Positions 3,349-19,660 of a DNA stretch of 64,000 nt are shown in pieces; position 1 is the stretch's first letter, and every line of letters starts with the position of its first letter. The DNA is from Candidatus Omnitrophota bacterium (GTDB taxonomy: Bacteria; Omnitrophota; Gorgyraeia; Gorgyraeales; Gorgyraeaceae). Location of the stretch: positions 71,747 to 135,746 of the forward strand of contig DNHS01000051.1 of assembly GCA_003485765.1 (NCBI GenBank), given 5' to 3'. A program made the position numbers and the translations under genes. The notes below the pieces were generated by a model. That model saw only the letters and a list, made by a program, of their open reading frames with translations, searched no databases and was not told where the DNA came from.

Positions 3349-3410
3349 TATAACACGCTTACAATTTTAATAAAGAACAGAAATTTCTTACAATCTACCT
3401 CTAATACTTT

Positions 3411-3510: not shown

Positions 3511-3515
3511 TTGGC

Positions 3516-4123: not shown

Positions 4124-4285
4124 CTACTTTGCCAGCGGTTCTTGGTTTACCTCTCTGCCATAGGCTATGTGGACAGCTTTCCTTAGCAATTCACAGATGC
4201 TTTTACTGGTCTTGCATCTCATCTGGAACAGAATTGCCATTTCTTTTTCAGATAATTTAGAAGCTGGCCACTGATATTTGTTCAT
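4124..4285 (-). CDS. Possible small ORF (53 aa, MNKYQWPASKLSEKEMAILFQMRCKTSKSICELLRKAVHIAYGREVNQEPLAK), directly downstream of repeat copy 3
   Basis: ATG at complement 4283-4285 lies ~15 nt after the conserved TTGCGTTTATTAGAGGG box. Below the ORF-track length cut-off; hand translated. Confidence 0.2.
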   Translation of the reverse strand: MNKYQWPASKLSEKEMAILFQMRCKTSKSICELLRKAVHIAYGREVNQEPLAK

Positions 4286-4289
4286 TTTT

Positions 4290-4390
4290 AAACTTGCCCT
4301 CTAATAAACGCAAGGTTGATATACAATCTCGGAAAAAGGTAAAATCCTTTAAACATATACGAAGTCTCATTAAGGGGCATGCTGTGCAGC
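4290..4390. promoter_or_regulatory. Copy 3 of the conserved upstream element
   Basis: CCCTCTAATAAACGCAAGGTTGATATACAATCTCGGAAAAAGGTAAAATCCTTT plus CATTAAGGGGCATGCTGTGCAGC. Confidence 0.5.
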
Positions 4391-4396
4391 TTAATG

Positions 4397-5659
4397 TCAT
4401 TTAGGCGAACTTTCACGCCCCGGTTTCGCATAACAGTCTGACCACCATTTCCCGGTCTTACAAGAGACAATTAACTTCAACCCTTCCAGCTCTGTTTCCA
4501 TAATTACTTTGATTCGCTCAATGCTATCTTCGACTTCACCCTCTGGAACTGTAACAAGTATTCCGTCATGCAACATTGTGTCTATTTTAAACCCTGCTTT
4601 ATGCAGAGCGACAAGGCTGAATTTCACGATGTCAGCAGCTGTTCCCTGAATCCGAGTATTCACGGCTTGGCGCTCTGATTTCTTTCTTGCTACAATATTA
4701 GGAGAAATTATATCAGGAAGAAATCTTCGCCTGCCGAAATATGTCTCCGCAAATCCTGTTGAGCGAGCCTTCTCAATCGTCTCTTGCTTAAACGCCTCTA
4801 TCTCAGGAATATTTGATTTATAGGCTTTTATAAGCTTCTCTGCTTGATGAATAGATGTCCTGAGATTACGGGCAAGCCCTGCTGCTTCCTGTCCATAGCT
4901 CAAACCAAACCCGAGCATTTTTCCGAGCTTTCGCTCCTTGTCTGTTACGAGTTCGTATGGGATACCTTTCATATCGCTAACAGCTTTCTTATGCATATCC
5001 AAACCTTTAGCCCAGCAATCCTTGAAATATTTATCGTGGGAAAGAGCAGAGATAATGCGGAGTTCAAAACTATCATAGTCCGCTAAGATAAAAGTGCAGC
5101 CTTCGTCTGCGTAGATAACAGTTCTGCCAAGTTCTGGAATTCCTTGTAGGTTGTAGTCTCGGGTGTAAAGCCGGCCACTGGGACAGTCATCGGTGTAAAT
5201 GCAGGAGACTTTTCCCTGCTTCTTATCAGTTGCAGTATATAAGCCTTTAAGAGTAGAAAGAAGTCTCTCCAGATTCCTATATTGGGATATTTCTTGAGTG
5301 ACTGGATTATTGAAATCGGTGAGGGCTCTACGGTTAGCGATGTATCTACCGGTGCGGGACTTTCGTAATTTAACCCCTAACTGTGAAGAAAGAATCAAGG
5401 CTATGTCACGAGCACTATTAAGGTTGACCTTGCCTTTAAGATGCAGATTCTCATATAAGCTATCGCGAATTTTATCTTTATCAAGCCTGACTCCATCAAT
5501 TAGTGCTGAGAGTTTATTAACATCCACATTCAAGCCTCGATTCTGCATTGAGATTTTAACTCCCTGCATATCTTTTTCGAGGGCTTGAATGGTCTCTGAA
5601 TGAACTACTCTGTCGCAGGTATATATAGGCTCCCGCTCGTCTCGATATTTTAAAGACAT
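4397..5659 (-). CDS. Family A DNA polymerase, polymerase domain only (no 3'-5' or 5'-3' exonuclease domains)
   Basis: Motif A LADYDSFELRI (DYSQIELR), motif B KLGKMLGFGLSYG (K..NFG..YG), motif C MLHDGILV (HDE), RRFLPDI, QGTAADI. Collinear with the Taq/Klenow palm-fingers region. 420 aa. Confidence 0.8.
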   Translation of the reverse strand: MSLKYRDEREPIYTCDRVVHSETIQALEKDMQGVKISMQNRGLNVDVNKLSALIDGVRLDKDKIRDSLYENLHLKGKVNLNSARDIALILSSQLGVKLRKSRTGRYIANRRALTDFNNPVTQEISQYRNLERLLSTLKGLYTATDKKQGKVSCIYTDDCPSGRLYTRDYNLQGIPELGRTVIYADEGCTFILADYDSFELRIISALSHDKYFKDCWAKGLDMHKKAVSDMKGIPYELVTDKERKLGKMLGFGLSYGQEAAGLARNLRTSIHQAEKLIKAYKSNIPEIEAFKQETIEKARSTGFAETYFGRRRFLPDIISPNIVARKKSERQAVNTRIQGTAADIVKFSLVALHKAGFKIDTMLHDGILVTVPEGEVEDSIERIKVIMETELEGLKLIVSCKTGKWWSDCYAKPGRESSPK

Positions 5660-5835
5660 CCTCTTATACCTCAGGTTGGAAAAAATTTTAAAAGATACTT
5701 TTCGTGTTCCTCATTTCTACATAACTCATTGCTAATAAATAAGTTATGCCACCCAATAAATACATATAAACAACGGCGTTCTGGATTTGTCAAGCAAAAA
5801 AGTAAAGATTTTTTAACTCTCCGACGAGATTTTTA

Positions 5836-6519
5836 TTATTGTGTAAGAAATTCTTTTGCAATCTGCAAATCAATGACACCTTCGTAGTTCGAAAGAATTT
5901 CCAGATTGCCAAGGCAGTCTCGTGGACAAAAATTAGAGCGTTCTATTAAAAATTCAAATACGTTTTTTTCAATCTTAATTCTTTCAAGCTCAGAAATTCT
6001 GCTTAGTTTACTAATTAATACATCATTTGGTGGCGGCTTAAGAAAATATTTATCACTTCTTGAAAGCAGTCCTCCATCAATTCTGTTCAGGTCAGATGTT
6101 GCAAAAATGAAAGTCAAAAAATTGATGTCTTCTATAGGCTTTAAGAAGCCATCCTGCGCTTTATCAGGCATTCTATGAGCCTCGTCAAAAAATAGAACTC
6201 GCGGCATAAGTACAGAACAACTGAATCCTCTAAATTTACCCAACATTTTATTGATAGTTGCGTAATCGCACTCTGGGGAATTAAATTCCATATATTCAAT
6301 GCACTGCGAAAGCTCACCTTCGCATTCAATGATATCTTTGGCAAATATTCTCGCCAGCGTTGTCTTACCCAAGCCGAAATTTGAAGACAGGATTATCGAA
6401 TGAGGGAAAAATCCTTTCTTGCGATAACCATTCCAAATAATTTTGATATGCTCATTACCCCAAACCTCATCCAGTGTCTTAGGCCTGTATTTCTCTCTGA
6501 AATCTCTTAAGTCTTCCAT
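5836..6519 (-). CDS. Clamp-loader-like AAA+ ATPase (DnaX/RFC small-subunit-like)
   Basis: KYRPKTLDEVWGNEHIKII...SSNFGLGKTTLARIFAKDI matches the KYRP...GxxGxGKTT clamp-loader N-terminus. Walker B is FFDEAHRM. Confidence 0.6.
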   Translation of the reverse strand: MEDLRDFREKYRPKTLDEVWGNEHIKIIWNGYRKKGFFPHSIILSSNFGLGKTTLARIFAKDIIECEGELSQCIEYMEFNSPECDYATINKMLGKFRGFSCSVLMPRVLFFDEAHRMPDKAQDGFLKPIEDINFLTFIFATSDLNRIDGGLLSRSDKYFLKPPPNDVLISKLSRISELERIKIEKNVFEFLIERSNFCPRDCLGNLEILSNYEGVIDLQIAKEFLTQ

Positions 6520-6616
6520 TGAAAAGCTCCTTTCTGGTTAAACTGAAAAACTAAACAATTTATGCACTAACTTCTTGATAAATTTAAGGTTGCTGTTTAT
6601 CATGCTGCCATAAAAA

Positions 6617-7741
6617 CTAAGATAAACTAAGGGTCGAATAGCAGTTAGCTAAGAGATTATCGGCCGAACCAATAGGAAAATCATCAGTGAAAGAGTAGTC
6701 AATTCTATTCTTTAGTCCTCTTACAGGCAGCTCGTTGAGAAAACCTAAGGCAGATAACTTTTTGAAGTATTTAGCCGTAACATTATAATTCTTAAAACGA
6801 CTTCCTTCTGTGGCGACTGCCGTTACTTGGTTACGGGTAAATGTTCTGTTCTGAAATAGCTCCCTCTTATGCTCCCGGAGAAAAACAATGAATTCAACAA
6901 GATCCCTTGTTAACGAAGCATCATCTTCGTCAATATGAACGCTTGTTAGAATCTGCTTTGCCTCGTAAAAATCATCGTGGACTGCCCCTATATACCTTGT
7001 CTCGCCATCTGTTTCTACAGTCCGCTGATTCTGATTAAGGAAAGTAATTGAAGAGATAAGGTTTAGGGTTCTTTCCATTATTCGCGGAGCGTGGTATGGA
7101 CTTGCACCAAGCTTTATTTGCTCTGCAAAGGGAATACCCACCGCTAAATTATGATTTAAATTCTTCTGAAATGTGCGGTGCTTATCTTGCAGACATTTAG
7201 TTGCCCGTTCAGAAATAAATCCTTTAACTGTCCTGAGTAACTTCTGCCTGCAAAGAATACCCTCCCTTGCTTCTTGAGATGTATTAATTCCTGCGACAAA
7301 ACAGCGAGACCTATTCTCAATACCAAATATTTCTGAATTAACCGTGGTTTCAATAAGAGTAGTCGGCCCCTTAAGAACATGTTCCTCATTAGCAGTAGAA
7401 TAGGTAACTTCGCCCTCGCTAATCAACTCTCTTATATACTGAGCGAATTGAGGGTCTTCATATTTCTCGTAGATAAACAAAATCTTATCGCTTAAATCGC
7501 CTTGCCTAACAAGACTGGCAGGCGTGATACGTGAACGGAAAAGAATATCTTCTGAAGGGAACAAATCTAAAACTGTTTTGGCAAGATGTGACTTACCCAG
7601 CCCTGCCGGCCCGGAAACAAGAACAGAGATTTTGTATCGAGTCTTTCTGACCGTAGCAGCCAGATACAGCAGCAAAGCTAAGTTTAAATTATCTCCTACT
7701 CCTAAAATTTTCAAATCTTCCTTTAATTCCTGAATTTTCAC
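6617..7741 (-). CDS. P-loop NTPase with DnaC/IstB-like Walker A (SGPAGLGKSHLAK); putative replication initiation or helicase-loader protein
   Basis: Walker A near residue 43, Walker B ILFIYEK. Neighbours are the polymerase and clamp-loader genes. Confidence 0.4.
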   Translation of the reverse strand: MKIQELKEDLKILGVGDNLNLALLLYLAATVRKTRYKISVLVSGPAGLGKSHLAKTVLDLFPSEDILFRSRITPASLVRQGDLSDKILFIYEKYEDPQFAQYIRELISEGEVTYSTANEEHVLKGPTTLIETTVNSEIFGIENRSRCFVAGINTSQEAREGILCRQKLLRTVKGFISERATKCLQDKHRTFQKNLNHNLAVGIPFAEQIKLGASPYHAPRIMERTLNLISSITFLNQNQRTVETDGETRYIGAVHDDFYEAKQILTSVHIDEDDASLTRDLVEFIVFLREHKRELFQNRTFTRNQVTAVATEGSRFKNYNVTAKYFKKLSALGFLNELPVRGLKNRIDYSFTDDFPIGSADNLLANCYSTLSLS

Positions 7742-7752
7742 AACTACCTCCT

Positions 7753-7775
7753 TGTGACGTTAAGGTGACGTTAAG
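7753..7775. repeat. Paired TGACGTTA motif (TGTGACGTTAAGGTGACGTTAAG), copy 1 of 3; putative integrase arm-type site
   Basis: Near-identical pairs at 7996-8018 and 18331-18354, all within att-flanking DNA. Confidence 0.5.
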
Positions 7776-7915
7776 AACTATAATTCTACAAAAGCATCCA
7801 AACATACGCAAAGACATCTAACACAATAAAAAAGGCGTAACTACCTTAAAAATCAGGTGATTACGCCTAATTACTAATAAAAATAGAGGGTTATACAAAC
7901 CCTCTATAAACAAAT

Positions 7916-7935
7916 GGTGCCGAGGAGAAGAATCA
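7916..7935. repeat. 20-bp direct repeat of the tRNA-Phe 3' end (TGGTGCCGAGGAGAAGAATC): att core copy between elements B and A
   Basis: Identical to 18492-18511 inside the intact tRNA-Phe. The ~160 bp to its left (7753-7915) is ~80 percent identical to 18331-18491. Confidence 0.7.
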
Positions 7936-7995
7936 TTTCTTTCCCTCGTATAAGTCCTTATTATATAATATGTTCTCAATATTACAAGTATTTTT

Positions 7996-8018
7996 TGTGA
8001 CGTTAGCGAGACGTTAAT
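7996..8018. repeat. Paired TGACGTTA motif (TGTGACGTTAGCGAGACGTTAAT), copy 2 of 3
   Basis: See 7753-7775. Confidence 0.5.
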
Positions 8019-8068
8019 ATAAAAAATATAGTTTTATGGATATTAGTACATATGATATAATTTAAGCT

Positions 8069-8404
8069 ATGGATAAAGATAATCAAAAAAACAACCGCCT
8101 ATCCTATACCATATTTACTGCTATATTAGGGGGGATTATTTTTCTTGTTTTTAATAACTACTGGTACCAAGATCACTCTTCTTATATTATTAAAGGAAAT
8201 AGAATAACAGGTAGTACTTATGTCTTTTCATTTAGTAATCCTGAGATAGGCTGGGTGCCTTTGAAAAAAGGATTAGACCAAAATCAAATGGGGATTTTTT
8301 ACGGTTTATCTAATAGATCTAAAGAAGAACGCAAACTTTTTGAAGACCTATTACAGAAATTAAATGATCTAGATAAAAAACTCGAAGAAAAACAAGAAAA
8401 ATAA
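8069..8404 (+). CDS. Small hypothetical membrane protein
   Basis: 111 aa with one TM segment (IFTAILGGIIFLVFNNYW). Confidence 0.35.
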   Translation: MDKDNQKNNRLSYTIFTAILGGIIFLVFNNYWYQDHSSYIIKGNRITGSTYVFSFSNPEIGWVPLKKGLDQNQMGIFYGLSNRSKEERKLFEDLLQKLNDLDKKLEEKQEK

Positions 8405-8420
8405 ACTGCTCAAATTTTCT

Positions 8421-9488
8421 TTAGCTTTTTAGTTTAGGTATAAAACTTGCCTTAAAATATTCGTCTCTGATAACATCTTCCGGTGGGTTATTGTAGGTCT
8501 TCTCCATAACTTGTTTACTGCTCCATCCGCCTATTTCTTGTTTTGTCTTGCTTGAAAGCCCAGGACGGCTTGCAAAAGTATGTCTTAGATCGTGGATTGT
8601 AGCCTTGGCAATGCCTACTTTCTCGCATATCTCTATCATCTTATTCCTCATTTTATTCTTATTGAGAATATTACCCTTAGGATCAGAAAAAACATACCTG
8701 CCTCTGGCCTGCGCTATTGCCTGCTGTAATACTGATTTTAGCTCTGGGTGTATTGGTATAATTTTTGGCCTGTCAGTTTTGGTATTTTCTATGGTTATTA
8801 TGCCTTTAGATAGATCCACAAAACTTTTTTCCATCTTCCTGACTTCATCGCGCCTAAAACCACATATATATAAAGTCAAATATATAGCATACCAATTAAT
8901 ATCTCTGCTTTCTGCTTTGGCGCCTTCAAGAAATTTCGCAAGCTCTTCATCAGAAAGACAACGCCTCTTTTGAACCTTTATTATTTTAAGAGATCTAATT
9001 TTTGATACTGGATTAATACCTGAGATCTTATTGTGTTCTATCAAGATGGAAAACAGATTATATAAAGCCATCCTTTCAGAGTTTACGGTCTTAGTTGCCC
9101 TTTTCTTTTCGTTAATACGATAATCCATAAATTCTTTAATGTGTTCTGACTGTATTTCATCAAAGTATTTCAAGTTGGAGCGCTTTACACTAAGAAACTC
9201 CTTAAAATTCTTCATATATCCGTTGTACCTAATATATGAGGTATCATCAATGCTTCCCTTCTTGGTCCTTAACCAAAAATCTATGCCTTGTTCAAAAGTA
9301 ACTCTATAAGTAGGTTTATCTGTCATTGAACTAAATATCTGTTCCGGCATTTTTAAAAGCTTTAATCTGGCTTCTTTTTCAGTAAGAGACTTAATCTCTA
9401 TTCTCTTGCCAGAAAAATTAGTTATTTTAAAACAATACCAGGATCCACGCCGGTATATTTTTTTAGGAACTCTAAAGCGTTTTCTCAT
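8421..9488 (-). CDS. int: Tyrosine-type site-specific integrase
   Basis: C-terminal catalytic motifs: RRDEV...(R box), HDLRHTFAS (H-x-x-R), GGWSSKQVMEKTY (catalytic Y). N-terminal SAM-like domain. 355 aa. Confidence 0.85.
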   Translation of the reverse strand: MRKRFRVPKKIYRRGSWYCFKITNFSGKRIEIKSLTEKEARLKLLKMPEQIFSSMTDKPTYRVTFEQGIDFWLRTKKGSIDDTSYIRYNGYMKNFKEFLSVKRSNLKYFDEIQSEHIKEFMDYRINEKKRATKTVNSERMALYNLFSILIEHNKISGINPVSKIRSLKIIKVQKRRCLSDEELAKFLEGAKAESRDINWYAIYLTLYICGFRRDEVRKMEKSFVDLSKGIITIENTKTDRPKIIPIHPELKSVLQQAIAQARGRYVFSDPKGNILNKNKMRNKMIEICEKVGIAKATIHDLRHTFASRPGLSSKTKQEIGGWSSKQVMEKTYNNPPEDVIRDEYFKASFIPKLKS

Positions 9489-9664
9489 ACTAATGCAACT
9501 TTTACTGTATTAATCTCCCATCTTTCCAGGTCTTCTTCTCTAAAACGATTTAAACCGCCTATTTTAATATAAGGAATAAAATCCTTAGATGTCCATTGAT
9601 AAAGAGTACTCCTTTTGATGTTATATCTTTCACAAACTTCCTCAGGCGTTAATAACTTTCCCAT
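9485..9664 (-). CDS. xis: Excisionase / AlpA-like HTH DNA-binding protein
   Basis: MGKLLTPEEVCERYNIKRSTLYQWTSKDFIPYIKIGGLNRFREEDLERW is a typical Xis/MerR-type winged-helix fold. The ORF track starts at GTG 9673; ATG at 9664 is preferred. It sits immediately upstream of int. Confidence 0.6.
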   Translation of the reverse strand: MGKLLTPEEVCERYNIKRSTLYQWTSKDFIPYIKIGGLNRFREEDLERWEINTVKVALV

Positions 9665-9717
9665 GGCTATCACCCCCTCTCTGTTACAAAAACAAGTCCT
9701 TATTTAACAGTTAAATA

Positions 9718-10365
9718 TTACCGCTTTTCCCCTTGCAAATTACAAGAGTGTTTTTGTAACACTCTTTTTACCTGGATATAGCTGATCCTGTCTTTCTTAG
9801 AGATATCCTTATTGTATTCGCGCGCTATCTTCCTCAGACCAAGGTCTTTATGCTTAGCAATGGACTTTAACCTTTTTATATCAATCTCTTTTTTAGGCCG
9901 ACCACCTTTGTATTCGCCTTTTTCTTTTTTTTGTTTAATACCTTCCCGAACCCTAATCCCAAGCATCTTGCTAAAGTTATTAGCCATATAAGCGAAGATC
10001 ATCATAATGATCTGCCACATGTCATTATTGCTATCTATACCTTCCTTTATACTAACGAATCTACATTTATGCTCTTCTACGACTTTATGAAGATCTGAAA
10101 CTATCTTGGTAGGCGTTTCTCTTGAAAATCTATCAAGCATGTAAACTACAAGTATATTAAATTCTCTCAGTCTGATTCTTTCCAATGCTTCTTCAAAGAC
10201 CTTTCTCCTCGTACCTTTATAAGCGCTCTCGTATTCCTGGAATATTTCATAAGGCCAGCTTTGGGATTCGCAATACTTCTTACAGGTATTAATTTGATTC
10301 TCTACATCCTGTTTTGATTCATCAGTACTGCACCGCGCATAAATTATAGCCCTTATTTTTTCCAT
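9718..10365 (-). CDS. Serine recombinase (resolvase/invertase family) with C-terminal HTH
   Basis: From internal Met: MEKIRAIIYARCSTDESKQDVENQ (YARVST..Q catalytic-serine motif), ...VVYMLDRFSR. The ORF track extends to an upstream alternative start at 10443. Confidence 0.8.
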   Translation of the reverse strand: MEKIRAIIYARCSTDESKQDVENQINTCKKYCESQSWPYEIFQEYESAYKGTRRKVFEEALERIRLREFNILVVYMLDRFSRETPTKIVSDLHKVVEEHKCRFVSIKEGIDSNNDMWQIIMMIFAYMANNFSKMLGIRVREGIKQKKEKGEYKGGRPKKEIDIKRLKSIAKHKDLGLRKIAREYNKDISKKDRISYIQVKRVLQKHSCNLQGEKR

Positions 10366-10439
10366 AAATACCTCTTTATTTTTCCACACATGCTTATAAA
10401 ATTTACCACAACTATAAATAATGTTTTCCATACACATCC

Positions 10440-10860
10440 ACATGGAAATTTGTGGTAATTTCCAGGTAACCTCAGGTAAATATCGTTTCCTAGGAAAATA
10501 CCCCAGGACCAGCGTCGGGAAGAATTAGGCTTTTTCCTATAGGACTTTGTGGAGACTTTCCAGGTAAAAGACAGGAGTTTAGCCGGCCACCAGGAAATTA
10601 CCTCAGGACCAGCGTCGGATATAAAAGGTCTGATTTTACCTGGAAAACAAGGTCCTAGTCTTATAGGACCGAGGGAGCGGAAAAAGTCCGCTAAAGTCCG
10701 CAAAAGTCCGAGCGTACAAGTCCGTAAAAATAACCGTGTTTTTAACGTATTGAATTCCATGGCAACCTATCAGTTTGACCTGGATCACCTGGATTATTTC
10801 CAGGACCGCTTCCATGGCCTTTTAAGGACTTTCTCAGGAAAATAAAGGTCACTATTGTTA
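10440..10860. repeat. Repeat-dense non-coding block: inverted repeat GGAAATTtgtggtAATTTCC; 2x CAGGACCAGCGTCGG; 2x TATAGGAC; 4x AAGTCCG; several TTCCAGGTAA / TTACCTGGAA. Candidate res site or origin.
   Basis: Repeats are visible directly in the sequence. Overlapping ORFs 10353-10760(-) and 10549-10845(+) are judged spurious. Confidence 0.55.
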
Positions 10861-11104
10861 AAATCCCAAGGTATATAGTACCTAATACTTTCCGGCCAGA
10901 GGATCCTTCTTTCTTTTCCTCAGGTACTTTCTGGATTCCCAATAGCTTCCTAGTTCTTATTGTGCCATCTCTTAGATTTACTGCCTTGCAATATGGACAA
11001 TGGAAAAGAGACTGCTTGCCTTCCCTGGCATTTTGTGGTGCCGGCTTAGGTAAACGTGTTGTTTCCTCGCCACATGCTTTACAAATTAATTTTATTTCTT
11101 CCAT
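10742..11104 (-). CDS. Small zinc-ribbon protein with a C-terminal TM segment (C-terminal portion uncertain)
   Basis: CKACGEE...CPYCKAV (two CxxC pairs) then VLGTIYLGILTIVTFIFL. The 3' part runs into the repeat block. Confidence 0.3.
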   Translation of the reverse strand: MEEIKLICKACGEETTRLPKPAPQNAREGKQSLFHCPYCKAVNLRDGTIRTRKLLGIQKVPEEKKEGSSGRKVLGTIYLGILTIVTFIFLRKSLKGHGSGPGNNPGDPGQTDRLPWNSIR

Positions 11105-12003
11105 CGGACTGTCTCCTCTTTATTATTACCAGAATTTATCCAGGACTTTCTAAGCCAATCCGGCGGATTAGCCTTTAATTCATTAAGATGATTCTTTGAA
11201 ACGTAGTATTCCTTATGAGGATCCTTCTTATACTTGATAAATCCTAACTTAATGTATTTTTTGATAGTCGTATCCGATAAATTTAAAACAGTTTCCACCC
11301 TTTTTATATGGATGTATTCCTCGTTATCATAAACAAGGTTTCTCTGAGAGTTTTCTCTATTTTTAATACTGCATGGATTGTTCCATATCTTAGTTAAAAA
11401 CTCCGGCTTTTCTTCCAGGACTTTCTCTATGTCAGATCTTATAAACGACCACCCTAATAAAGTACTAAACTCAGCTTTAATCTTTTTTTGCCTGATAAAC
11501 TTATATAAAACAGCTCGCGAAATATTAAGCATTTCTAAAACCTGAGGCGCGCTTAAACATTCCTTTGGTTTTTCCTGGATCTCTTCCAGAGAGATAGGGA
11601 TATCTTCCTGTTCTGCTTTCTCAATATTTATTATATCTCCTGGATTTATCTGAGAATGGCCTGGAATTTGAAGAGGTACGTCAAAGGCTCCCAATTCCTC
11701 CATTGCTACCTGAAATAATTTCTTCTTCATCCTGTTTATATAATCAACGAGATAACCTTTATCCACCATGCCGTTCTTGAAAACTTCACCTGGATCCGCT
11801 TTGTACTTATCAAAATCCAGGTCTTTGCCTATCATGGCCACCATGCACTTACGCTTATACCATGGTAAGTCTTCATTATTATCCATAAAGAAAGCTACTC
11901 TTATAGGAGAGCCGTTATTTAAATAAGAAAGGCTTTGATCGTCAAGTCTGATTAGAAGTAAATCATGGCTACTATTAGGGCTTTTTAATAACTTGGCTTC
12001 CAT
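11092..12003 (-). CDS. DNA-binding protein with two excisionase/MerR-like HTH segments
   Basis: LSAPQVLEMLNISRAVLYKFIRQKKIKA and IKRVETVLNLSDTTIKKYIKLGFIKY are both HTH_17-like. Confidence 0.45.
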   Translation of the reverse strand: MEAKLLKSPNSSHDLLLIRLDDQSLSYLNNGSPIRVAFFMDNNEDLPWYKRKCMVAMIGKDLDFDKYKADPGEVFKNGMVDKGYLVDYINRMKKKLFQVAMEELGAFDVPLQIPGHSQINPGDIINIEKAEQEDIPISLEEIQEKPKECLSAPQVLEMLNISRAVLYKFIRQKKIKAEFSTLLGWSFIRSDIEKVLEEKPEFLTKIWNNPCSIKNRENSQRNLVYDNEEYIHIKRVETVLNLSDTTIKKYIKLGFIKYKKDPHKEYYVSKNHLNELKANPPDWLRKSWINSGNNKEETVRWKK

Positions 12004-12214
12004 TTTGCCTTTTTTTCTGTAATTTCATTAAGAATCTGCCGACTTCAAAAAGCATACACTCTGCAAGCACACCGAAATGATAGAAACGGTTCGCCTCTTG
12101 ATTTCTTTTGATTGTCCATATCTTCCACTGTCTTGCCTTCCATCCTTTAAAAACTCCTAAGCCTACTAACCAGTTTTGAGATTTCCATATTGAAATTAAG
12201 CGCATATCCCACCT

Positions 12215-12430
12215 TTATTTAGTATTTCCCTCTTTCGGCCTACATCCGAGGCGGTAAACATACAAAGGACATTCTAAGCTATCGCAATTTCTAACCAAGG
12301 AATAATGATTACCTGCACACTCCAGGCACTTATGCCTGATTGCTCTAATAGGCGGTAATCTTTTAGTGCCTTTTTGACTATCCTTTTCCTTTAACATTAT
12401 ATTTTTCATAGAGTTATATTTTTTGAGCAT
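12215..12430 (-). CDS. Small zinc-finger protein (CLECAG...CDSLECP)
   Basis: 71 aa with two CxxC-like pairs. Confidence 0.3.
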   Translation of the reverse strand: MLKKYNSMKNIMLKEKDSQKGTKRLPPIRAIRHKCLECAGNHYSLVRNCDSLECPLYVYRLGCRPKEGNTK

Positions 12431-12439
12431 GCTTCATTC

Positions 12440-12790
12440 CTTATCATTACATATCATTGCTTGTCATTCGTTGTCATTCGTTACTATTCCTTGACATTCC
12501 TTAACGAATACAAACTTGGCTCTAAGTAAATTTTTATCAACGCGTCTGCCATACCCCCTAAAAAGTGGGTTACTCGGTTACCTATCTATGCAATGCCTTG
12601 AAAAACATAAGCTTACATGGTAACCCAAGCTTAATTTCTCGGTTACTTCTCGGTTACCTATTTGCTTTTTCGGTTACCAGTAACCGAAAGGTAACCCAGT
12701 TTTTATAACTCGGTTACCTATTTATCCTATTGTAAATAATATGGTTATAGTTTTTGGTAACCCAGTAACCGAGGTAACCGAGACAGAGGG
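12440..12790. repeat. Iteron array (putative replication origin): at least 10 copies of CGGTTACC / GGTAACC(G) in both orientations (e.g. CTCGGTTACCTAT x3). An AT-rich TCATT(n5) tract lies at 12440-12500.
   Basis: Seen directly. Copies near 12573, 12620, 12639, 12649, 12671-12697, 12709, 12756-12784. It lies between the small Zn-finger gene and the 3' end of the replication-protein gene. Confidence 0.6.
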
Positions 12791-12795
12791 AGAAA

Positions 12796-14469
12796 TCAAT
12801 CACAGTTTTCCAGCCTTTTTTCGATTTCTTCCAAATGTATCCGGAACCCTTTTATATTCTTACCATCAATCTTTCTTTGCTCTGCACGGCCTTTGACAAG
12901 ACCGGCATATCTTAAAGCTTTTCCAAGCCATCTGCCTTTATTTTGCTTCTTCTCATCATTTAACCAAGCAAAGTCTTCTTCGCCGGATCCCTTAAAAATC
13001 TCTAATAATTCATTAATGGTCCAAAAATCATCCATCTTAGGATATTCCCTTTCTGAGAAAACTTCCTTAAGCACCATAAGAACCTTTGGAGTAATTGTGT
13101 CTTCTCTGCGCGCTTCTTTTTTAAGCTTTTGGATCTCAAGAGCGTGATTTCTTATTTCGTCATATAGGTTAAATTTTGAATCGCTATCATTATCTATAAC
13201 CTTGGCAATCGTAAGAATAGGTTTGCTTAATTCCCATTCCCTGCCTAATATTTCTTCATCTTTTATTGTTTGATAAAATACCTTTACCTGGAGAGAATAA
13301 GTAAGCATTATATGGTAGAGCTTATCGCGGATATCTTGAAAACTTTTATCATTATTGTTTAACTCACGGTTTTTAATCTCCTTGTTGCCGGTTTTTAACA
13401 TTATAATAGGGATACACCTTGAACTTAATGAAGACTCAAATCCCTTTATTGAAGCAAACATCTTAGGAGAATATGCCTCAAATTGTTTAGGTAGCCATTG
13501 ACTATATTCATTAACTTGTTCGCATTTACCGCAAAATGATCCTTTTTTATATCCAGCGTTATACATGGCTATTAAAGCTTGACTATCTTGATCATCAGAA
13601 CGCCTTAATCTTTCTATTTCATCAACACAGCAAGTGGAATGATTATTATGAACCGCTCTGATTATATAAGCAGGAGATGAATTGAATGTCAACTCACCAT
13701 TGAAAGATAACCAGGCTGTAAACATTAAGGTTTTAGTCTTGCCGGATTCCATATCTCCATTAAGGTGAACATAGGGGAAGGTATCAAAAATTCTCTGGAA
13801 GTACGTAGCAATAATCCAAAGGGTTTTATATTTAGTCCAAGTGTCATTACCTAAATCAATATAACTTTTACTAAGCTTATAAATATCGGTAAAAACATCT
13901 GATATTTTTATGTTTTCCTTACCATTAGTAAATAACTCAATACTCTTATCTGACCATCTTTTATTTAAACAAGGGCTCCTTTCTGAATAAAGATTCATCT
14001 TTAATAATTCCTCATCTGAAAGACGAATTTTTTGTTTTTCAGAAGTTATTATATAATTAATAGATTTTACTTTATTATCTACACAGATATTAACTGGAAT
14101 AGTGACGTAAGCTGTGTCATCGATAAAATCTTGCGCCGGAGTAATAATTGATAGGTGTGGAGCGTAATTAATAACTGGGGTTTCGTCTTTATCGATACCC
14201 ATTTCCATGGCATATCTTTTTACTGTCTTTAAGGCATCTTTTTGATTAACTATGCCGACTTCGCTTAAACGTTTTATACACAATACTCTGTCTTGCTCTG
14301 CTAATAAAGGAATAGAGCGTATAATTAAATCTCTTTTTTCTGCCTGGACCGGCAATTCCAGAGTCTCCCATTCCTTTATTAGATTATGTACTTCTTCTAT
14401 TATTTTTTTCTTCTTTTCATCTTCCTTAAGTCTTGTAGTTAAATCTTTTTCTTCATCTACTCTATTCAT
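12796..14469 (-). CDS. Putative replication initiator / primase-helicase-like P-loop NTPase
   Basis: 557 aa. Walker A HLNGDMESGKTKTLMF (~res 238), Walker B CCVDEIERL. Adjacent to the iteron array. Family not resolved. Confidence 0.45.
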   Translation of the reverse strand: MNRVDEEKDLTTRLKEDEKKKKIIEEVHNLIKEWETLELPVQAEKRDLIIRSIPLLAEQDRVLCIKRLSEVGIVNQKDALKTVKRYAMEMGIDKDETPVINYAPHLSIITPAQDFIDDTAYVTIPVNICVDNKVKSINYIITSEKQKIRLSDEELLKMNLYSERSPCLNKRWSDKSIELFTNGKENIKISDVFTDIYKLSKSYIDLGNDTWTKYKTLWIIATYFQRIFDTFPYVHLNGDMESGKTKTLMFTAWLSFNGELTFNSSPAYIIRAVHNNHSTCCVDEIERLRRSDDQDSQALIAMYNAGYKKGSFCGKCEQVNEYSQWLPKQFEAYSPKMFASIKGFESSLSSRCIPIIMLKTGNKEIKNRELNNNDKSFQDIRDKLYHIMLTYSLQVKVFYQTIKDEEILGREWELSKPILTIAKVIDNDSDSKFNLYDEIRNHALEIQKLKKEARREDTITPKVLMVLKEVFSEREYPKMDDFWTINELLEIFKGSGEEDFAWLNDEKKQNKGRWLGKALRYAGLVKGRAEQRKIDGKNIKGFRIHLEEIEKRLENCD

Positions 14470-14483
14470 CTTTTCATCTCCTT

Positions 14484-14714
14484 TTAAACCATATTAAATA
14501 TGGCAGATTTTACATCAGTCATTGCGTTTTTCAAGATGGTTATACCAACCAGGCCGTTATTATAAAATTCTTTCACTAGTTCTTCTCTTTCTCTGATGTC
14601 CTCAAAAACAAAAATGGCTCTTCTGCTTTCTCCTTGTATGCGCGTAATTTTCATTCCTTTCGCTTTTAAGAAAGCTGAGAGCCAGAGATCCTGAGTAATA
14701 AATTCTTTATTCAT
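14484..14714 (-). CDS. Small hypothetical protein (possibly DUF5659-like)
   Basis: MNKEFITQDLWLSAFLKAKGMKITRIQGESRRAIFVFEDIREREELVKEFYN. The start region AAAGGAGATGAAAAGATGAAT is duplicated at the start of the 12796-14469 gene. Confidence 0.4.
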   Translation of the reverse strand: MNKEFITQDLWLSAFLKAKGMKITRIQGESRRAIFVFEDIREREELVKEFYNNGLVGITILKNAMTDVKSAIFNMV

Positions 14715-14747
14715 CTTTTCATCTCCTTTTTTATTCAATCCTATCTT

Positions 14748-14951
14748 CTACTTTATTCCAATTGCTAAATCCGACTTCTTAATTTTTAATGCCTTGCAAA
14801 TTTTATCTACTAGTTTTTCGCTTGGCTCCAAACGACCGATCATAATTTTACTAAGATTTGTTTCGTGTATCCCAACCATTTTAGCCAGTTGCCATTGTTT
14901 AATGCTTTTTCTGAACAAAATAGTTTTTAATGCCAAATTATTTATTTGCAT
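14748..14951 (-). CDS. XRE-family (Cro/CI-type) HTH transcriptional regulator
   Basis: SIKQWQLAKMVGIHETNLSKIMIGRLEPS is a classic XRE helix-turn-helix. Confidence 0.6.
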   Translation of the reverse strand: MQINNLALKTILFRKSIKQWQLAKMVGIHETNLSKIMIGRLEPSEKLVDKICKALKIKKSDLAIGIK

Positions 14952-15026
14952 ATGTTCTCCTTAACTTTATTATTGATGTTAATATATTATCATTATTATT
15001 AATCATAATCTTTAGAGTAAAAAAAA

Positions 15027-15599
15027 TTACTGTTTTTGTCTCAATTCTAACGCTATCTTTTTAAGATCTAACGAATTAGCTCTTTCTGTAACGTTCTTTG
15101 ACAAGGCCGTATTGCGTTCTTCTAATTCTCTAATATTTAAAAATAACTTCTCTGTAACTTCTTTATAAGCGTTGTCCTTCTTCTCTACTTGTTGTTTTAT
15201 TTGTTTAACATTCTCTGGTTCAGGTTTATAAATATATTTATCCGGATTTTCTGCCCAGGGAATAAACATTTCTTTCTCTCTCTGTGTAAGCGCCACATTT
15301 TTGCCTAGTTTCTCTAACGTTTGTATTATTAAATTGTATGCCAGCATGTAGTTTATCTGTTCATTTTGCCAAATAAGTAAAATAGAAATTTCTTTGATTG
15401 AAAATCCTAAATATAACAAGTGACAAATTAATAATATTCTATGAACATCTCTTTCTGAATAAAGCCTATAACCTCCCACAGTGTAGTGTGGTTCTATTAA
15501 TTTCTTTTGTTCGTAATTTATTAATTTATTACGCGTTAGACTGTATCCGAAAGACTTTAAATGTTTAATTAGGTCTTTTACGCTATATTCTTCTGCCAT
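15027..15599 (-). CDS. MerR-family transcriptional regulator
   Basis: YSVKDLIKHLKSFGYSLTRNKLINYEQKKLIEPHYTVGGYRLYSERDVHRILLICHLLYLGFSIKEI, a MerR N-terminal HTH plus coiled-coil tail. Confidence 0.65.
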   Translation of the reverse strand: MAEEYSVKDLIKHLKSFGYSLTRNKLINYEQKKLIEPHYTVGGYRLYSERDVHRILLICHLLYLGFSIKEISILLIWQNEQINYMLAYNLIIQTLEKLGKNVALTQREKEMFIPWAENPDKYIYKPEPENVKQIKQQVEKKDNAYKEVTEKLFLNIRELEERNTALSKNVTERANSLDLKKIALELRQKQ

Positions 15600-15755
15600 A
15601 TGCCTCTGTAAGGTTATTATTGATAATCATATATTATTACCTATAATAATGTACACCACAATTATTTGTTTGTCAAGTATTTTGAAAAATTTCTTTTACC
15701 TTATTATAAATAGAGGCAGGAAATTGCTTATTGCTTCTGGTCTGCTGTTTTAATT

Positions 15756-16898
15756 TCATCTTTCTTCAATATCTTCATCACATACAAAACCATAAACAAA
15801 ATTGTTTTTTTGTGATTTATCTGTAAGACGTATTATACGACAATAAAAATTTTTGTCTTTTAAGCCTCGTATTCTTGCGCCAAGATAAACTTCTTCATCT
15901 TTATCTAATTCATTAACTATTTTACTGTCTATAGAAGCTTTTTCATAAACCTTTGTAGCCGTATTTTTAATTTTTACTGTTTTTATATTTCCCTTAGCAA
16001 GCCTTTGCTGAGATATATTCTCTTGTTTAAGTAACAAGATTTCTATAGTTTTTCTAAGAGAATATTCAGCATTTTCTTCATTATATATATCATCTTCGAA
16101 TTCGTCTTTTATAACCCATTCTTTGTCTTCTTTATAATAATATACTTCTGGAGTAATGCGTCTTATATTCCAATAATCTATAAGAGAAATGCCTATGGCT
16201 AACAAATCTTTATCTAATCCATTATAATCTAGTACAATATAGTCTGTTGGTTCTTTAACATGTTCTTCTATGTATTCTTTAGTTGTTGCATAAGAAGGTG
16301 CCATTGACGCAAAGGATCCTAAGACATTAGCTGTTCCTTTTTCAAAATCCCTAATATCATATTGTTTTTCAAAAGCTAAATATATAACTTTTCTACAATT
16401 TATTTGACACTCTTTATAATTTTGGGATTTCAAGAAGTCTTCGGCTTCTTTCAATAAACATTTATTTTCACTATCTTTTAACAAATCAATTAGTGTTATA
16501 TTATTAAAGTTAATTTTAAGATATCTCGCACTTGACTCTTCAAAAAAATTATTTACAACAACAGGAAAATCTCTGCAGTCTTCGATGCGAGGCAATATCC
16601 CATGATGTTTTAAATTAACGCGTTGCCGATTAAGTTCTAACATTTTTGTACTCAAAGGGACATCTTCCCCTTTTTCTTTCTTGATTATCGAGAAATATCC
16701 TGGAAAACTTACATTATCATTTATAGTCACTTTTAATTGTTCACATAGGGCTATTAAAAATAATTCAACAGCATCTTGTAACAAAATAATGCCGGCACCT
16801 ATTCTTTCTGCATTCTCAGCAATTTTAAAACAGTCTTTGCCCAAAAAATATAAAAACTTGGCCATCTGAATTTTTCTTATAACAGATTGTTCTAACAT
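15756..16898 (-). CDS. Hypothetical protein (cargo gene 3). An N-terminal helical region carries an R-x6-H motif (NRQRVNLKHHG) that could be a HEPN-like RNase motif.
   Basis: 380 aa with no confidently recognised domain. The HEPN suggestion is pattern-level only. Confidence 0.45.
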   Translation of the reverse strand: MLEQSVIRKIQMAKFLYFLGKDCFKIAENAERIGAGIILLQDAVELFLIALCEQLKVTINDNVSFPGYFSIIKKEKGEDVPLSTKMLELNRQRVNLKHHGILPRIEDCRDFPVVVNNFFEESSARYLKINFNNITLIDLLKDSENKCLLKEAEDFLKSQNYKECQINCRKVIYLAFEKQYDIRDFEKGTANVLGSFASMAPSYATTKEYIEEHVKEPTDYIVLDYNGLDKDLLAIGISLIDYWNIRRITPEVYYYKEDKEWVIKDEFEDDIYNEENAEYSLRKTIEILLLKQENISQQRLAKGNIKTVKIKNTATKVYEKASIDSKIVNELDKDEEVYLGARIRGLKDKNFYCRIIRLTDKSQKNNFVYGFVCDEDIEER

Positions 16899-17024
16899 TT
16901 GATCCTCTGTGGGTTATTAAGCATATGATAGTCTTGTAGGGTAATATAGACAAGGAAAAAATAAGGTAGAAAATGACAACTGGTAAGCAAAAACTGATTC
17001 TCAGGCTAGCTATAAAAATACATC

Positions 17025-17843
17025 TTAAAAATAAAGCCTAACAAAAATACTATGGGTATCTTCCTTTGTTTCTTTTGTCGCAAATTTACTCTGTTTTTCA
17101 AGTTCATCTACTACTTCTATTATTTTTTTTATATTGGACGTACCTATCCCATGCATATTGATATACTTAAGACCATATTTTTTCTTTAATTCTATCTCAC
17201 CTTTTATATCATTTTTATTCATTATATGATTAACAAATACACAAAGAGGCAATTCATCAACAACCATTTTATACATACTTTTAAATTTATCTAAAACTAT
17301 TTTGTCTTCGTATTTCCCTTCTAAAGAACCATGATAAGGAATTAAAACTTCTTCTAAATAACGCGCCGAACACAAATTAGCTATATTCTTCCCTTTATCT
17401 CCATATCTTTGCATAATATCGCACTTCAATTGTCTTGTCTTGGGTTTATCATGCGCCTCAAAAAAACTCCTCATATACAAAGATGCTCTCCATATATTAA
17501 AGTCTTCAGGAGGGATTTTAGGTTTTAAAAAATCTAAAACTTCCTTATTGCCTGCTGAACTGTCTTTCGCCTTAAAATCTTCTATTGATTTTTTAGTTTC
17601 ATCTTCCAATATAGAATAGCCATCTTCTATAGCTTTGGGTAATATATCTTTAAGGGCTTTTCTTTCGGAGGAGTCTAGTTTAGCAAGATTTATCGTGAGA
17701 TTCTTAGAATCATCATGGTATTCTGTTTTTTGACTATGATCATCCTTTTTAATATTTATATTATTAGATAGGTCTATATTGAAATTAATATCGGGAAGTT
17801 TAAGATTGGAAAGTAACTTACCTAAAGCTTCTAGGAAGCTCAT
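17025..17843 (-). CDS. Hypothetical protein (cargo gene 2)
   Basis: 272 aa. Start overlaps the stop of the 81-aa upstream gene by 4 nt (ATGA), suggesting translational coupling. Confidence 0.5.
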   Translation of the reverse strand: MSFLEALGKLLSNLKLPDINFNIDLSNNINIKKDDHSQKTEYHDDSKNLTINLAKLDSSERKALKDILPKAIEDGYSILEDETKKSIEDFKAKDSSAGNKEVLDFLKPKIPPEDFNIWRASLYMRSFFEAHDKPKTRQLKCDIMQRYGDKGKNIANLCSARYLEEVLIPYHGSLEGKYEDKIVLDKFKSMYKMVVDELPLCVFVNHIMNKNDIKGEIELKKKYGLKYINMHGIGTSNIKKIIEVVDELEKQSKFATKETKEDTHSIFVRLYF

Positions 17844-18085
17844 TGATTATTATCTTGAATAGTATCTGCCAATTCTATGACAGAATTTATACCTGTCCTA
17901 ATAAATACTAAAGATCCTTTCTTTAGGCCCACGAAGTCTTTTAATTCCAAAGGTTCCCCATCAGAAGACGGAACTTTCTGCCCTGACTGCTTTTCTATGA
18001 TATATCCGTCTGCATCTACGGCGCAATCAAACAAATCTAGAATATCCTCTTTGGTATTTTTTTCAAAAGTTATTATTTTACTCAT
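17840..18085 (-). CDS. Hypothetical small protein (cargo gene 1)
   Basis: 81 aa. First gene of the cargo transcription unit next to the att site. Confidence 0.45.
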   Translation of the reverse strand: MSKIITFEKNTKEDILDLFDCAVDADGYIIEKQSGQKVPSSDGEPLELKDFVGLKKGSLVFIRTGINSVIELADTIQDNNQ

Positions 18086-18104
18086 CGCTTTGTCTCCCCT
18101 ACAG

Positions 18105-18136
18105 AGATAAAAAAGGAAACACTTGATAGTTGTTTC
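18105..18136. terminator. Symmetric hairpin AAAAGGAAACA-cttgatagt-TGTTTCCTTTT; a bidirectional rho-independent terminator candidate between the att region and the cargo genes
   Basis: 11-bp perfect arms flanked by A-run and T-run, so a hairpin followed by U-run is formed on either strand. Confidence 0.45.
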
Positions 18137-18330
18137 CTTTTAAGGTTATCTCCGAAATACATTTTTTGTCCCCACCGTATAACTATAGTATAATTATACT
18201 CTAAATTATACTCCTGTCAAGCCTTACGCGTCAATATATTTTTTTGCATCATCTTCTCTGCTTGATTCTATCTTTCAGTATAAACAATACATAAAAAACT
18301 CTAAACGCATTTGTATTAATATAATAATTC

Positions 18331-18354
18331 TGTGACGTTAGTGTGACGTTAAGG
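18331..18354. repeat. Paired TGACGTTA motif (TGTGACGTTAGTGTGACGTTAAGG), copy 3 of 3, in the att-proximal arm
   Basis: See 7753-7775. Confidence 0.5.
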
Positions 18355-18491
18355 ATAAGGAATATACAAAACTATACAAACATATACAAAAGGATACAAC
18401 TAAATAAAAAACGTGTAACTTCTCTAAAAATCAGGTAATTACGCCTAATTGCTATAAAAACTATGGGTTACGAAGAACCCTTGAAAACAAG

Positions 18492-18566
18492 TGGTGCCGA
18501 GGAGAAGAATCGAACTTCCCACGCCGGCCTTTTCAGGGCCGCGCTCTACCACTGAGCTACCTCGGC
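18492..18566 (-). tRNA. tRNA-Phe (anticodon GAA); integration target
   Basis: Reverse complement GCCGAGGTAGCTCAGTGGTAGAGCGCGGCCCTGAAAAGGCCGGCGTGGGAAGTTCGATTCTTCTCCTCGGCACCA folds as a cloverleaf. Anticodon loop CTGAAAA, CCA encoded. Confidence 0.85.
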
Positions 18567-18694: not shown

Positions 18695-19660
18695 TTAAGT
18701 ATCAGAATCTTTATGTCTTTGATAGATTTTGCCAAAGTAAGGCCTTTTTTTCTCTCCCATTACAAATATAGCTGTAGAAAGCGCATCTGCTCCTTCTGCT
18801 GAATCCAGCGCTACTGTAACGCTTATAATACCCTGACAAGGTTCTCCTGTAAGAGGGTTTATTATATGAGAATATCTTTTGCCTCCTATTTCAAAAAACC
18901 TTTCATAATTTCCAGAAGTGCTTATAGCCCTGTCAGTTAATTCAAAACTATAGAGCAATTTGCCTTTCTTTCTAGGATCCTGAACCCCTATTTTCCAGTT
19001 TTTCTTCCCAGGCGCATTGCCTAATGCAAAGATATTCCCTCCAAGATTTACAAGGCCGTTTTTAATCCCATTCGACACCAGGACATCTTTTGCCCTGTCA
19101 ACTGCATAGCCCTTAGCAATCCCGCCAAAATCTATTTTTGTGTCTTTATTCAAAAATCTTATGGATAACTTTTTAGAATCCAGCTCTATATTTTTATATC
19201 CAACGGATTTCAGCGCATTCTCTATATCATCTTTATCTGGCATTGATTTATGTTTACGAACAAAACCCCATATCTCCATAAGAGGAGCCACTGTTACATC
19301 AAAAGCTCCATCTGAAATCCTGCTATAATATATAGATCTTTCTGTCAACCTAAATGCTTCCCCGCTCACTTTTATATTTTCAAGCCCTGCTATTTTATTT
19401 ATCTTTGATACCTCGCTATTTTCATCAAATTTACTAAAAACTTTTTCTATACGCTGCATCTCCTTAAACGCCTCGCCTACAGCCCGAACAGCCTTATCTC
19501 TGTCCGGGCTGTAACAGGAAATCTCGCAGAAAGTATCCATCAGGATCCTTGTTTCTTTCACTGACAAACCTTGGCTGCATCCTGCTAAAAAGAATATCAG
19601 AAAATAAAAAATTCCGCATCCTTTCAATATAAAAAGATGCGGTTGTTTTTTAAAAATCAT
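18695..19660 (-). CDS. apbE: FAD:protein FMN transferase (ApbE family) lipoprotein
   Basis: Lipobox LAGCSQ and the signature GGIAKGYAVD (FGGIAKGYAVDRA). 321 aa. Confidence 0.8.
   Translation of the reverse strand: MIFKKQPHLFILKGCGIFYFLIFFLAGCSQGLSVKETRILMDTFCEISCYSPDRDKAVRAVGEAFKEMQRIEKVFSKFDENSEVSKINKIAGLENIKVSGEAFRLTERSIYYSRISDGAFDVTVAPLMEIWGFVRKHKSMPDKDDIENALKSVGYKNIELDSKKLSIRFLNKDTKIDFGGIAKGYAVDRAKDVLVSNGIKNGLVNLGGNIFALGNAPGKKNWKIGVQDPRKKGKLLYSFELTDRAISTSGNYERFFEIGGKRYSHIINPLTGEPCQGIISVTVALDSAEGADALSTAIFVMGEKKRPYFGKIYQRHKDSDT

Follow-up and report, generated by a model that had tools for sequence, protein, structure and literature searches.

The 64,000-nucleotide stretch analysed here (the window; positions 71,747 to 135,746 of contig DNHS01000051.1, from a Candidatus Omnitrophota bacterium) carries a tRNA-Phe gene with a long insertion at its 3' end. 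We read this region as a head-to-tail array of two independent integrative elements, A and B, which share the same attachment specificity and carry in their ends paired 11-bp motifs, most probably arm-type sites. The probability of this reading as a whole is, in our estimate, about 0.9. It was first suggested from the sequence of the window, and is now supported by a third copy of the attachment core, a second integrase module and empty sites in relatives.

Direct repeats and empty sites at tRNA-Phe

The integration target is an intact tRNA-Phe(GAA) gene at 18492-18566 on the minus strand, found with ARAGORN and Rfam (RF00005, 65.5 bits) and identical to the tRNA at two empty sites in related genomes, L036 and L039 (L numbers are our labels for loci). 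Its 3' 20 nt, TGGTGCCGAGGAGAAGAATC on the plus strand, occur exactly twice in the window, namely within the gene (core 1, 18492-18511), where the tRNA joins element A, and at 7915-7934 (core 2), where element A joins element B. The sequence-only reading had noticed this recurrence and was right about it, apart from placing the second copy one base off, at 7916-7935. No further copies were found in the 64 kb when up to three mismatches were allowed, and the shuffles gave 0 copies. To the left of the window, the sequence was recovered from public contigs by a look-up seeded with the GmrSD protein, which reached 17 kb past the window (L016). This revealed core 3, GACTCTTCTCCTCGGCACCA, which has one mismatch and lies 13.4 kb left of the window at L016 18534-18553, corresponding to window positions -13409 to -13390. 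The three cores, starting at 18492, 7915 and -13409, have the same orientation, and both the tRNA-proximal (P) and the integrase-proximal (P') arms are homologous between A and B, as in tandem accretion.

The similarity extends well beyond the core. Local alignment of 7753-7934 with 18331-18511 gave 142 identical positions in 180 ungapped columns (78.9%), with a score of 95 compared to 12.2 ± 1.8 in 300 dinucleotide shuffles, about 46 standard deviations higher. When the 20-nt core was removed the score was 76 (shuffles 12.6 ± 2.0). The earlier estimate of about 160 bp at roughly 80% identity beside both core copies is therefore accurate. From the tRNA, the order is tRNA-Phe with core 1, element A, core 2, element B, core 3, and then a gene for a 238-aa protein, purB, purC and purL. 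The unit of A measures 10,577 bp and that of B 21,324 bp, which makes the whole insertion 31.9 kb long. As in genomic islands, a direct repeat of the tRNA 3' end is found at both element ends and the intact tRNA at one end.

Open reading frame (ORF), Pfam and PHROG results confirmed that the part of B inside the window encodes no integrase, from which it had been proposed that B either depends on the integrase of A as a satellite or has its own integrase further left. The second proposal proved correct. Left of the window, at the tRNA-distal end of B, we found a recombination module consisting of a resolvase, an HTH_3 protein, an HTH_17 Xis and a 370-aa integrase (IntB), whose gene ends 84 bp before core 3 and is followed by the 238-aa gene, purB, purC and purL. 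Because B has its own resolvase-Xis-Int module, it does not need the integrase of A (IntA). That B is a satellite or a decayed element mobilised in trans by IntA would agree with the lack of an integrase in its window part, and the core and arm motif common to A and B make cross-recognition conceivable; with an intact 370-aa integrase bearing all catalytic residues, a Xis-like gene and a resolvase beside its P' arm and core 3, however, we regard this as very improbable.

Empty sites were located through homologues of ApbE, the chromosomal flank on the tRNA side (18695-19660, minus strand, Pfam E=7.6e-89). The unoccupied loci (L036 and L039-L046) contain PvlArgDC, ApbE, tRNA-Phe, the 238-aa gene, purB, purC and purL, and at L036 ApbE and the 238-aa protein are 94% and 96% identical, respectively, to those of the window locus. 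At L039 the tRNA end, ...CGGCACCA, runs directly into CTCAAAAAAAAGGAGGCACTAAATG, which matches the flank after core 3 here (CTTGAAAAAGGAGGCAGTAAATG); the chromosomal flank beyond core 3 reads CTTGAAAAAGGAGG. Arm-like sequence was absent from the empty sites of these close relatives, and therefore the 180-bp repeat is element DNA and the 31.9 kb is an insertion. The same comparison had been named in advance as the one that could expose the repeat as ordinary conserved host sequence, and it speaks against that.

It could also be argued that the tandem is an assembly chimera of two single-element strains, since the sources are metagenome assemblies that were judged at the level of contigs. Different assemblers, applied to three samples, however, gave the same A|B junction in at least three assemblies (ENA scaffold_304, ENA k141_1142806 and Logan SRR6482978_68), and an analogous junction between an element and a remnant arm was found in another genome (L020). 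The exact repeat is only 20 nt long, with flanks that are 79% identical, which is too short to mislead an assembler working at k=31 to 141 and makes a chimeric join very unlikely. Taken together with the empty sites, we consider both explanations, host sequence and chimera, hardly credible.

On the array reading, each element would have entered when a heterobivalent tyrosine integrase of the lambda type recombined its attP, about 250 bp long, site-specifically with the tRNA 3' end or with a copy of it. The crossover would lie inside the 17 nt common to all three core copies (TCTTCTCCTCGGCACCA), and each element would restore the tRNA 3' end and bring a new terminator hairpin directly after it. 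Both orders of arrival end in an identical structure, so the order in which A and B came is not deducible. The predicted attP junctions of the excised forms are ...GGGAAAGAAAT GATTCTTCTCCTCGGCACCA CTTGTTTTCAAGGG... for A and ...GAGAAGAGATT GA[C/T]TCTTCTCCTCGGCACCA TTTGTTTATAGAGGG... for B, and we infer that both elements are still capable of excision.

The attP arms and the integrase

The paired motif was then counted over the window. The plus-strand form TGACGTTA (TAACGTCAC on the minus strand) occurs five times without mismatch in the 64 kb, where 0.93 occurrences would be expected. All five belong to three plus-strand pairs with 11-bp spacing, starting at 7754/7765, at 18332/18343, and at 7997 with a one-mismatch partner, GAGACGTTA, at 8008. 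The sequence-only reading had described a doubled motif at each repeat and a third pair beyond the internal core, and these three pairs hold every exact copy.

The P arms of the two elements share a common layout. Starting from the tRNA, the features are a terminator hairpin, an inverted repeat GGCGTAAT...ATTACGCC, phased TTTGTA tracts and the 11-bp tandem, and the same arrangement was found in A, B, L024, L034, L035, L021 and L025 at pairwise identities of 49%-80%. In A (P arm 18331-18491, minus strand) the hairpin lies at 18465-18480, the inverted repeat GGCGTAAT..GTTACACG at 18412-18445 and the doubled TAACGTCAC motif at 18332-18351, with phased TTTGTA repeats also in the arm. In B (7753-7914, minus strand) the hairpin lies at 7883-7907, the inverted repeat GGCGTAAT..ATTACGCC at 7834-7867 and the doubled motif, here CTTAACGTCAC, at 7754-7773, which the ribosome-binding site of a 374-aa gene directly follows. 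The hairpins thus stand directly after cores 1 and 2, and an Rfam search of the arms found the tRNA as the only RNA family. In the P' arm of A (7935-8068, minus strand) the doubled motif, which reads TAACGTCTC / TAACGTCAC on the minus strand, occupies 7997-8016 and is separated from core 2 by 62 nt.

To this we added a comparison of ten related elements from Omnitrophota metagenome-assembled genomes (MAGs), which revealed that the motif pairs keep their distance from the core. In A, B, L024, L034 and L035 the P-arm tandem, TAACGTCAC twice, begins at a distance of 139-141 nt from the core. In the P' arm, the distance between the core and the end of the tandem is 61-63 nt in A, B (in degenerate form), L020, L022, L024, L026, L027 and L035 and 83 nt in L023. 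The P'-arm tandem is found directly after the int stop codon or, in three elements (L020, L023 and L026), within the int coding sequence; its position therefore tracks the core and not the neighbouring genes. In elements that target tRNA-Thr, the P-arm tandem is CTTATTGGC twice and starts 127 nt from the core; CTTAWTGGC is doubled on both arms (L021 and L025/L028), and the P arm is about 10-13 nt shorter. Furthermore, both arms of one element carry the same motif, and where the motif differs between lineages, both arms have changed in concert. Across the ten elements, repeats unlike the core in sequence were thus found in the two attP arms, which is the arrangement used by heterobivalent integrases.

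IntA (355 aa, 8421-9488, minus strand) matched Pfam PF00589 with E=2.9e-19, and R212, K237, R302, H303, W322 and Y332 were invariant in A, B and eight relatives, so that both the family match and the R-K-H-R-H/W-Y residues of a tyrosine recombinase are present. IntA shares 38% identity with IntB, and the Xis protein of A 57% with that of B. A structure model was built with AlphaFold 2 for IntA only, from a 26-sequence alignment (mean predicted local distance difference test score, pLDDT, 84.6). It contains strands at 12-14, 17-23 and 29-34, a helix at 37-55 and a low-confidence flexible linker at 52-60, and its best matches in the PDB by Foldseek were full-length lambda Int structures, with about 350-370 aligned columns and E of about 4e-13. 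By this model, IntA is predicted to have an N-terminal arm-binding domain made of a three-stranded sheet and a helix, as a heterobivalent integrase does. Upstream of int, and overlapping it in A, B and all relatives, is an ORF of 59-63 aa for a Xis-like HTH_17 protein; in A it encodes 62 aa (9485-9673, minus strand, Pfam HTH_17) and overlaps the int start codon. Its product would act as the recombination directionality factor (RDF).

Because the core distances are fixed in ten elements, the motifs of the two arms covary and the predicted N-terminal domain is lambda-like, we think it likely that the doubled 11-bp motifs are arm-type sites bound by the N-terminal domain of the integrase, with two adjacent sites per arm. 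The earlier proposal of integrase arm-type sites is in this way supported by comparison and by the IntA model, with Int as the presumed binder. Several observations weigh against the array reading or its arm-site part. The Pfam search of the IntA N-terminus returned no named arm-binding family, and the assignment of that domain rests on a structure predicted from 26 sequences. The P' arm pair of B is degenerate, TTATCGTACCC TTAAAGTCCCA, agreeing with the consensus at 6-7 of 9 positions. Neither excised circles nor A-only or B-only contigs of this population were found in searches of public contigs; exact-protein look-ups with the 374-aa protein and ApbE for A-only, B-only or empty strains returned the tandem form only, and scanning JGI metagenome data for the distal junction gave the B-occupied form and no other (L019). 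Finally, the N-terminal domains of the integrases are not clearly sorted by motif type, and the Xis proteins of lambda-like systems are known to bind adjacent (tandem) direct repeats.

The last two points also favour a different binder. The TGACGTTA/TAACGTCAC pairs could be sites of the Xis-like HTH_17 protein or of an element regulator of the HTH_3 or MerR type, acting as operators for adjacent genes, namely the 374-aa gene in B and, in A, a 111-aa ORF and the leftward operon. Genes for HTH_17, HTH_3 and MerR proteins are present in A, and for HTH_17 and HTH_3 proteins in B; the ribosome-binding site of the 374-aa gene comes directly after the B pair, and in the P' arm of A a possible -10 element for the 111-aa ORF follows the pair at a distance of about 35-55 bp. 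This explanation does not readily account for a core distance that is fixed on both arms whatever gene follows, nor for pairs inside int in L020, L023 and L026. RDF sites are usually confined to one arm, the Xis sequences are likewise unsorted by motif type, and the predicted IntA structure has a domain that would suit arm sites. Sites for Xis or a regulator therefore seem rather unlikely to us, and binding by Int the better explanation.

With respect to specificity, residue 21 of Int (window positions about 9426-9428) was Lys, in a CFK(I/M/V)T strand, in elements with GTCAC-type motifs (A, L020, L022, L024, L027, L034 and L035) and Arg in those with GCCAC, GGCAC or TGGC variants (L023, L026, L021 and L025). 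B is an exception, having IRVTN with GTCAC. These alignments give a weak hint that residue 21 may be a specificity residue.

A sigma-70-like promoter was also found in the P' arm. It is conserved, lies about 30 nt from the core and points outward across it; the sequences are TTGTAA-16-TATAAT in A (7987-7960, minus strand, directed at the core) and TTGACA-17-TAACAT in B (L016 18478-18506), with another at about 11091-11120 of L021. It could drive the downstream chromosomal gene or, in the circular form, read into the P arm, and a terminator hairpin follows the core. We considered excision-dependent expression, in which the P' promoter drives the replication genes of B after circularisation, and found it unlikely with the terminator hairpin in between.

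Relation to known systems

No relaxase, coupling protein or type IV secretion genes were found in the Pfam and PHROG results for A and the window part of B, nor in the precomputed Pfam results for the remainder of B; several ORFs had no match, so a novel relaxase is possible. Capsid, portal, terminase and tail genes were not found either, apart from a single weak Terminase_5 (HTH-like) match to a 160-aa ORF called in one assembly. A and B are probably integrative, self-replicating islands and not conjugative elements or prophages. Replication is suggested because B encodes a PolA protein and a clamp-loader-like ATPase, and because a Toprim protein occupies the position of the 557-aa gene of A in the related element L035.

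The recombination system resembles that of phage lambda in several respects. The integrase is predicted to have three domains (an N-terminal beta-sheet and helix, a core-binding and a catalytic domain) and its model is closest to full-length lambda Int (lambda structures in the PDB include 1Z1G, 1Z1B and 5J0N); attP is about 250 bp long and has short direct repeats on both arms, distant from the core; and int is preceded by a small xis gene that overlaps it. Unlike in lambda, where arm sites are P1, P2 and P'1-3, there is here one adjacent pair per arm with 11-bp spacing, 140 and 62 nt from the core. The integrase sequence is only 18-20% identical to lambda Int, the target is a tRNA 3' end in place of an attB between gal and bio, and phage structural genes are lacking.

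In the Williams 2002 classification, one class of islands is said to integrate at the sublocation from the T loop to the 3' end of tRNA genes, and islands at tRNA-Phe are reportedly known in Enterobacteria and Mesorhizobium. A and B are like tRNA-targeting islands in that the repeat corresponds to the last 17-20 nt of the tRNA, with CCA included, integration leaves the tRNA restored, int lies at one end, and the site is a hot spot with different elements in different genomes. They differ in having the integrase at the tRNA-distal end, in an integrase clade that was limited to Omnitrophota-type MAGs in our searches, and in one sublineage that has switched to tRNA-Thr(CGT).

Site-specific tandem accretion is known from arrays of integrative and conjugative elements (ICEs), integrative and mobilisable elements (IMEs) and cis-mobilisable elements (CIMEs), such as ICESt1/ICESt3-CIME of Streptococcus thermophilus, IME_Sag2603_tRNAlys and the SGI1 arrays (PMC5704250). 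Where such tandems consist of functional elements, their integrases are typically distant relatives with equal specificity (PMC5704250). The array described here is similar: it has three direct att copies, its middle junction consists of the P' arm of one element and the P arm of the other, its integrases share one specificity despite their distant relationship (38% identity), and the apparently decayed partner seen in L020 compares with the decayed cis-mobilisable CIME partners of such arrays (PMC5704250). In contrast to ICEs and IMEs, A and B showed no sign of a relaxase, coupling protein, oriT-type or type IV secretion gene, and the host phylum, Omnitrophota, differs from those of the known arrays. 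Hence the arrangement is of an ordinary, well-known kind, and the element family is undescribed in the literature we searched, where no description of it was found.

Conceptually, these results add nothing beyond the established work on lambda Int and on ICE/IME accretion. They do provide a clean, fully delimited case of tandem accretion in Omnitrophota, a phylum known nearly only from metagenomes and whose mobile elements are barely described. They also define a family with a conserved resolvase-xis-int module and an unusually legible attP, with its hairpin, inverted repeat, phased TTTGTA tracts and paired 11-mers. The family can be used for annotating island boundaries in Omnitrophota MAGs and for finding defence cargo (type I restriction-modification (R-M), GmrSD, TIR) on mobile DNA, and possibly as a source of an integrase/attP pair for genetic tools.

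The array raises the question of whether two divergent integrases cross-act on a common core and arm motif. IntA and IntB are only 38% identical, and yet both elements use the same 17-20-nt core and carry the same TAACGTCAC motif. More tentatively, and with doubt prevailing, IntA and IntB might be interchangeable, either one excising A, B or the 32-kb A+B, and the site might serve as a platform for assembling and co-mobilising composite defence islands in Omnitrophota. The tRNA-Thr sublineage, in which the core differs from the Phe type at 4 of 20 nt and the arm motif has changed on both arms, might, as a separate matter, be a natural record of heterobivalent integrase retargeting.

Gene content and relatives of the elements

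Element A occupies 7935-18491 on the minus strand (10,557 bp between the cores), with a GC content of 0.28-0.39, below that of its surroundings. Its resolvase-xis-int module sits at the tRNA-distal end, and includes a small serine recombinase (9718-10443, minus strand, Pfam PF00239, E=9e-30). The 111-aa ORF (8069-8404, plus strand) lies between int and the P' arm, has no family match and is specific to A and L034. The other genes encode HTH_17, DUF5659, HTH_3 and MerR proteins and a 557-aa protein without a family match; replication and regulation are the putative roles of the 557-aa, DUF5659, HTH_3 and MerR genes. A variable cargo region at about 14734-18330 contains ORFs of 380, 272 and 81 aa without family matches. 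The sole match of the 380-aa protein was PHROG 37995, whose function is not annotated. When this tRNA-proximal third of A (14734-18330) was compared with positions 446-4200 of L034, it was found to be replaced there by a NYN nuclease and two 181-aa ORFs.

Element B lies on the minus strand, covers 1-7914 of the window and extends about 13.39 kb beyond its start, so that two thirds of the element lie outside. The window part encodes the 374-aa protein, an AAA ATPase (6617-7741), a clamp-loader-like AAA protein (5836-6519), a family A DNA polymerase with the polymerase domain only (4397-5659), a DUF2958 protein (3516-4010) and an HD protein (2722-3348), besides further ORFs without assignment. 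Left of the window are a type I R-M system, GmrSD, an HTH_3 + Peptidase_M78 pair and a ThsB-like TIR protein with DUF4231. The cargo of B is anti-phage defence and is unrelated to that of A. With hsdR, M and S genes, a GmrSD-type type IV enzyme, a ThsB-like TIR/DUF4231 protein and an ImmR/ImmA-like HTH_3/Peptidase_M78 pair (L016 4733-15228), B is effectively a mobile defence island.

Homologues of the integrase that are 43-93% identical to IntA were found almost only in Omnitrophota MAGs and metagenomes, and the gene order resolvase, HTH_17, Int was present at every locus inspected. The resolvase stands next to xis-int in every family locus seen, and the copies of A (9718-10443) and B (L016 15446-16261) are barely alignable (E=0.003); this conserved resolvase might serve multimer resolution of a replicating circle, or be an invertase. 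L035 is a complete single element of 10.4 kb with tRNA-Phe 3'-end repeats on both sides and carries the Toprim protein mentioned above. L034 occupies the same ApbE-tRNA-Phe site and is A-like, with an integrase 93% identical to IntA, a backbone 90-97% identical and a different cargo region. Immediately beyond the doubled motif, its P' arm (10780-10830) no longer matches the window sequence, and 51 nt later the contig stops; this divergent end contains three TGTCC repeats and may be a further insertion, or a repeat at which the assembly broke off. The L024 element measures 6.3 kb and sits at a tRNA-Phe with a different T-arm sequence, to which its core is co-adapted.

Distal cores of the tRNA-Phe type were found in L020, L022, L023, L026 and L027. 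In L020 (1421-1560) the distal core is followed by an approximately 75-nt remnant of another element's P arm, recognisable by the hairpin and a GCGTAAT inverted repeat, and then by the chromosomal CSD, purB and purL genes. This suggests that the remnant is a decayed tandem partner and that accretion and decay recur at the site. L021 (=L013; 3542-11165), L025 (2914-3140) and L028 (560-665) are located at tRNA-Thr(CGT), which agrees with the Phe core at 16 of 20 positions of its 3' end, and in L022 a tRNA-Thr gene lies merely 7 nt downstream of a tRNA-Phe remnant. Targeting of tRNA-Thr is a derived trait of a nested sublineage. We had considered module swapping, as IntA is 64-72% identical to the integrases of L021/L022 and at first seemed to group with tRNA-Thr integrases while the arms of A group with the tRNA-Phe type; the distal cores dissolved this conflict.

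Scans of IMG/VR for the doubled motif and for the integrase returned two unrelated phage contigs and no relatives of the integrase. In these contigs (L009 6240-6259 and L010 6829-6848), GTGACGTTAC(A/G)GTGACGTTAC lies just upstream of a gene start. The number of matches is about that expected by chance for 18 specified bases, and they are probably a coincidence.

Small insertions were also seen in the empty-site genomes. At L039 (7380-7510) an insertion of about 120 nt with an 8-nt duplication (GCCGAGGT) lies at the 5' edge of tRNA-Phe, between the promoter and the gene. L036, the closest empty-site genome, has an insert of about 140-160 nt (7962-8100) between tRNA-Phe and a 239-aa gene; it resembles a miniature inverted-repeat transposable element, with inverted repeats TGAACCA..., and is unrelated to the element arms.

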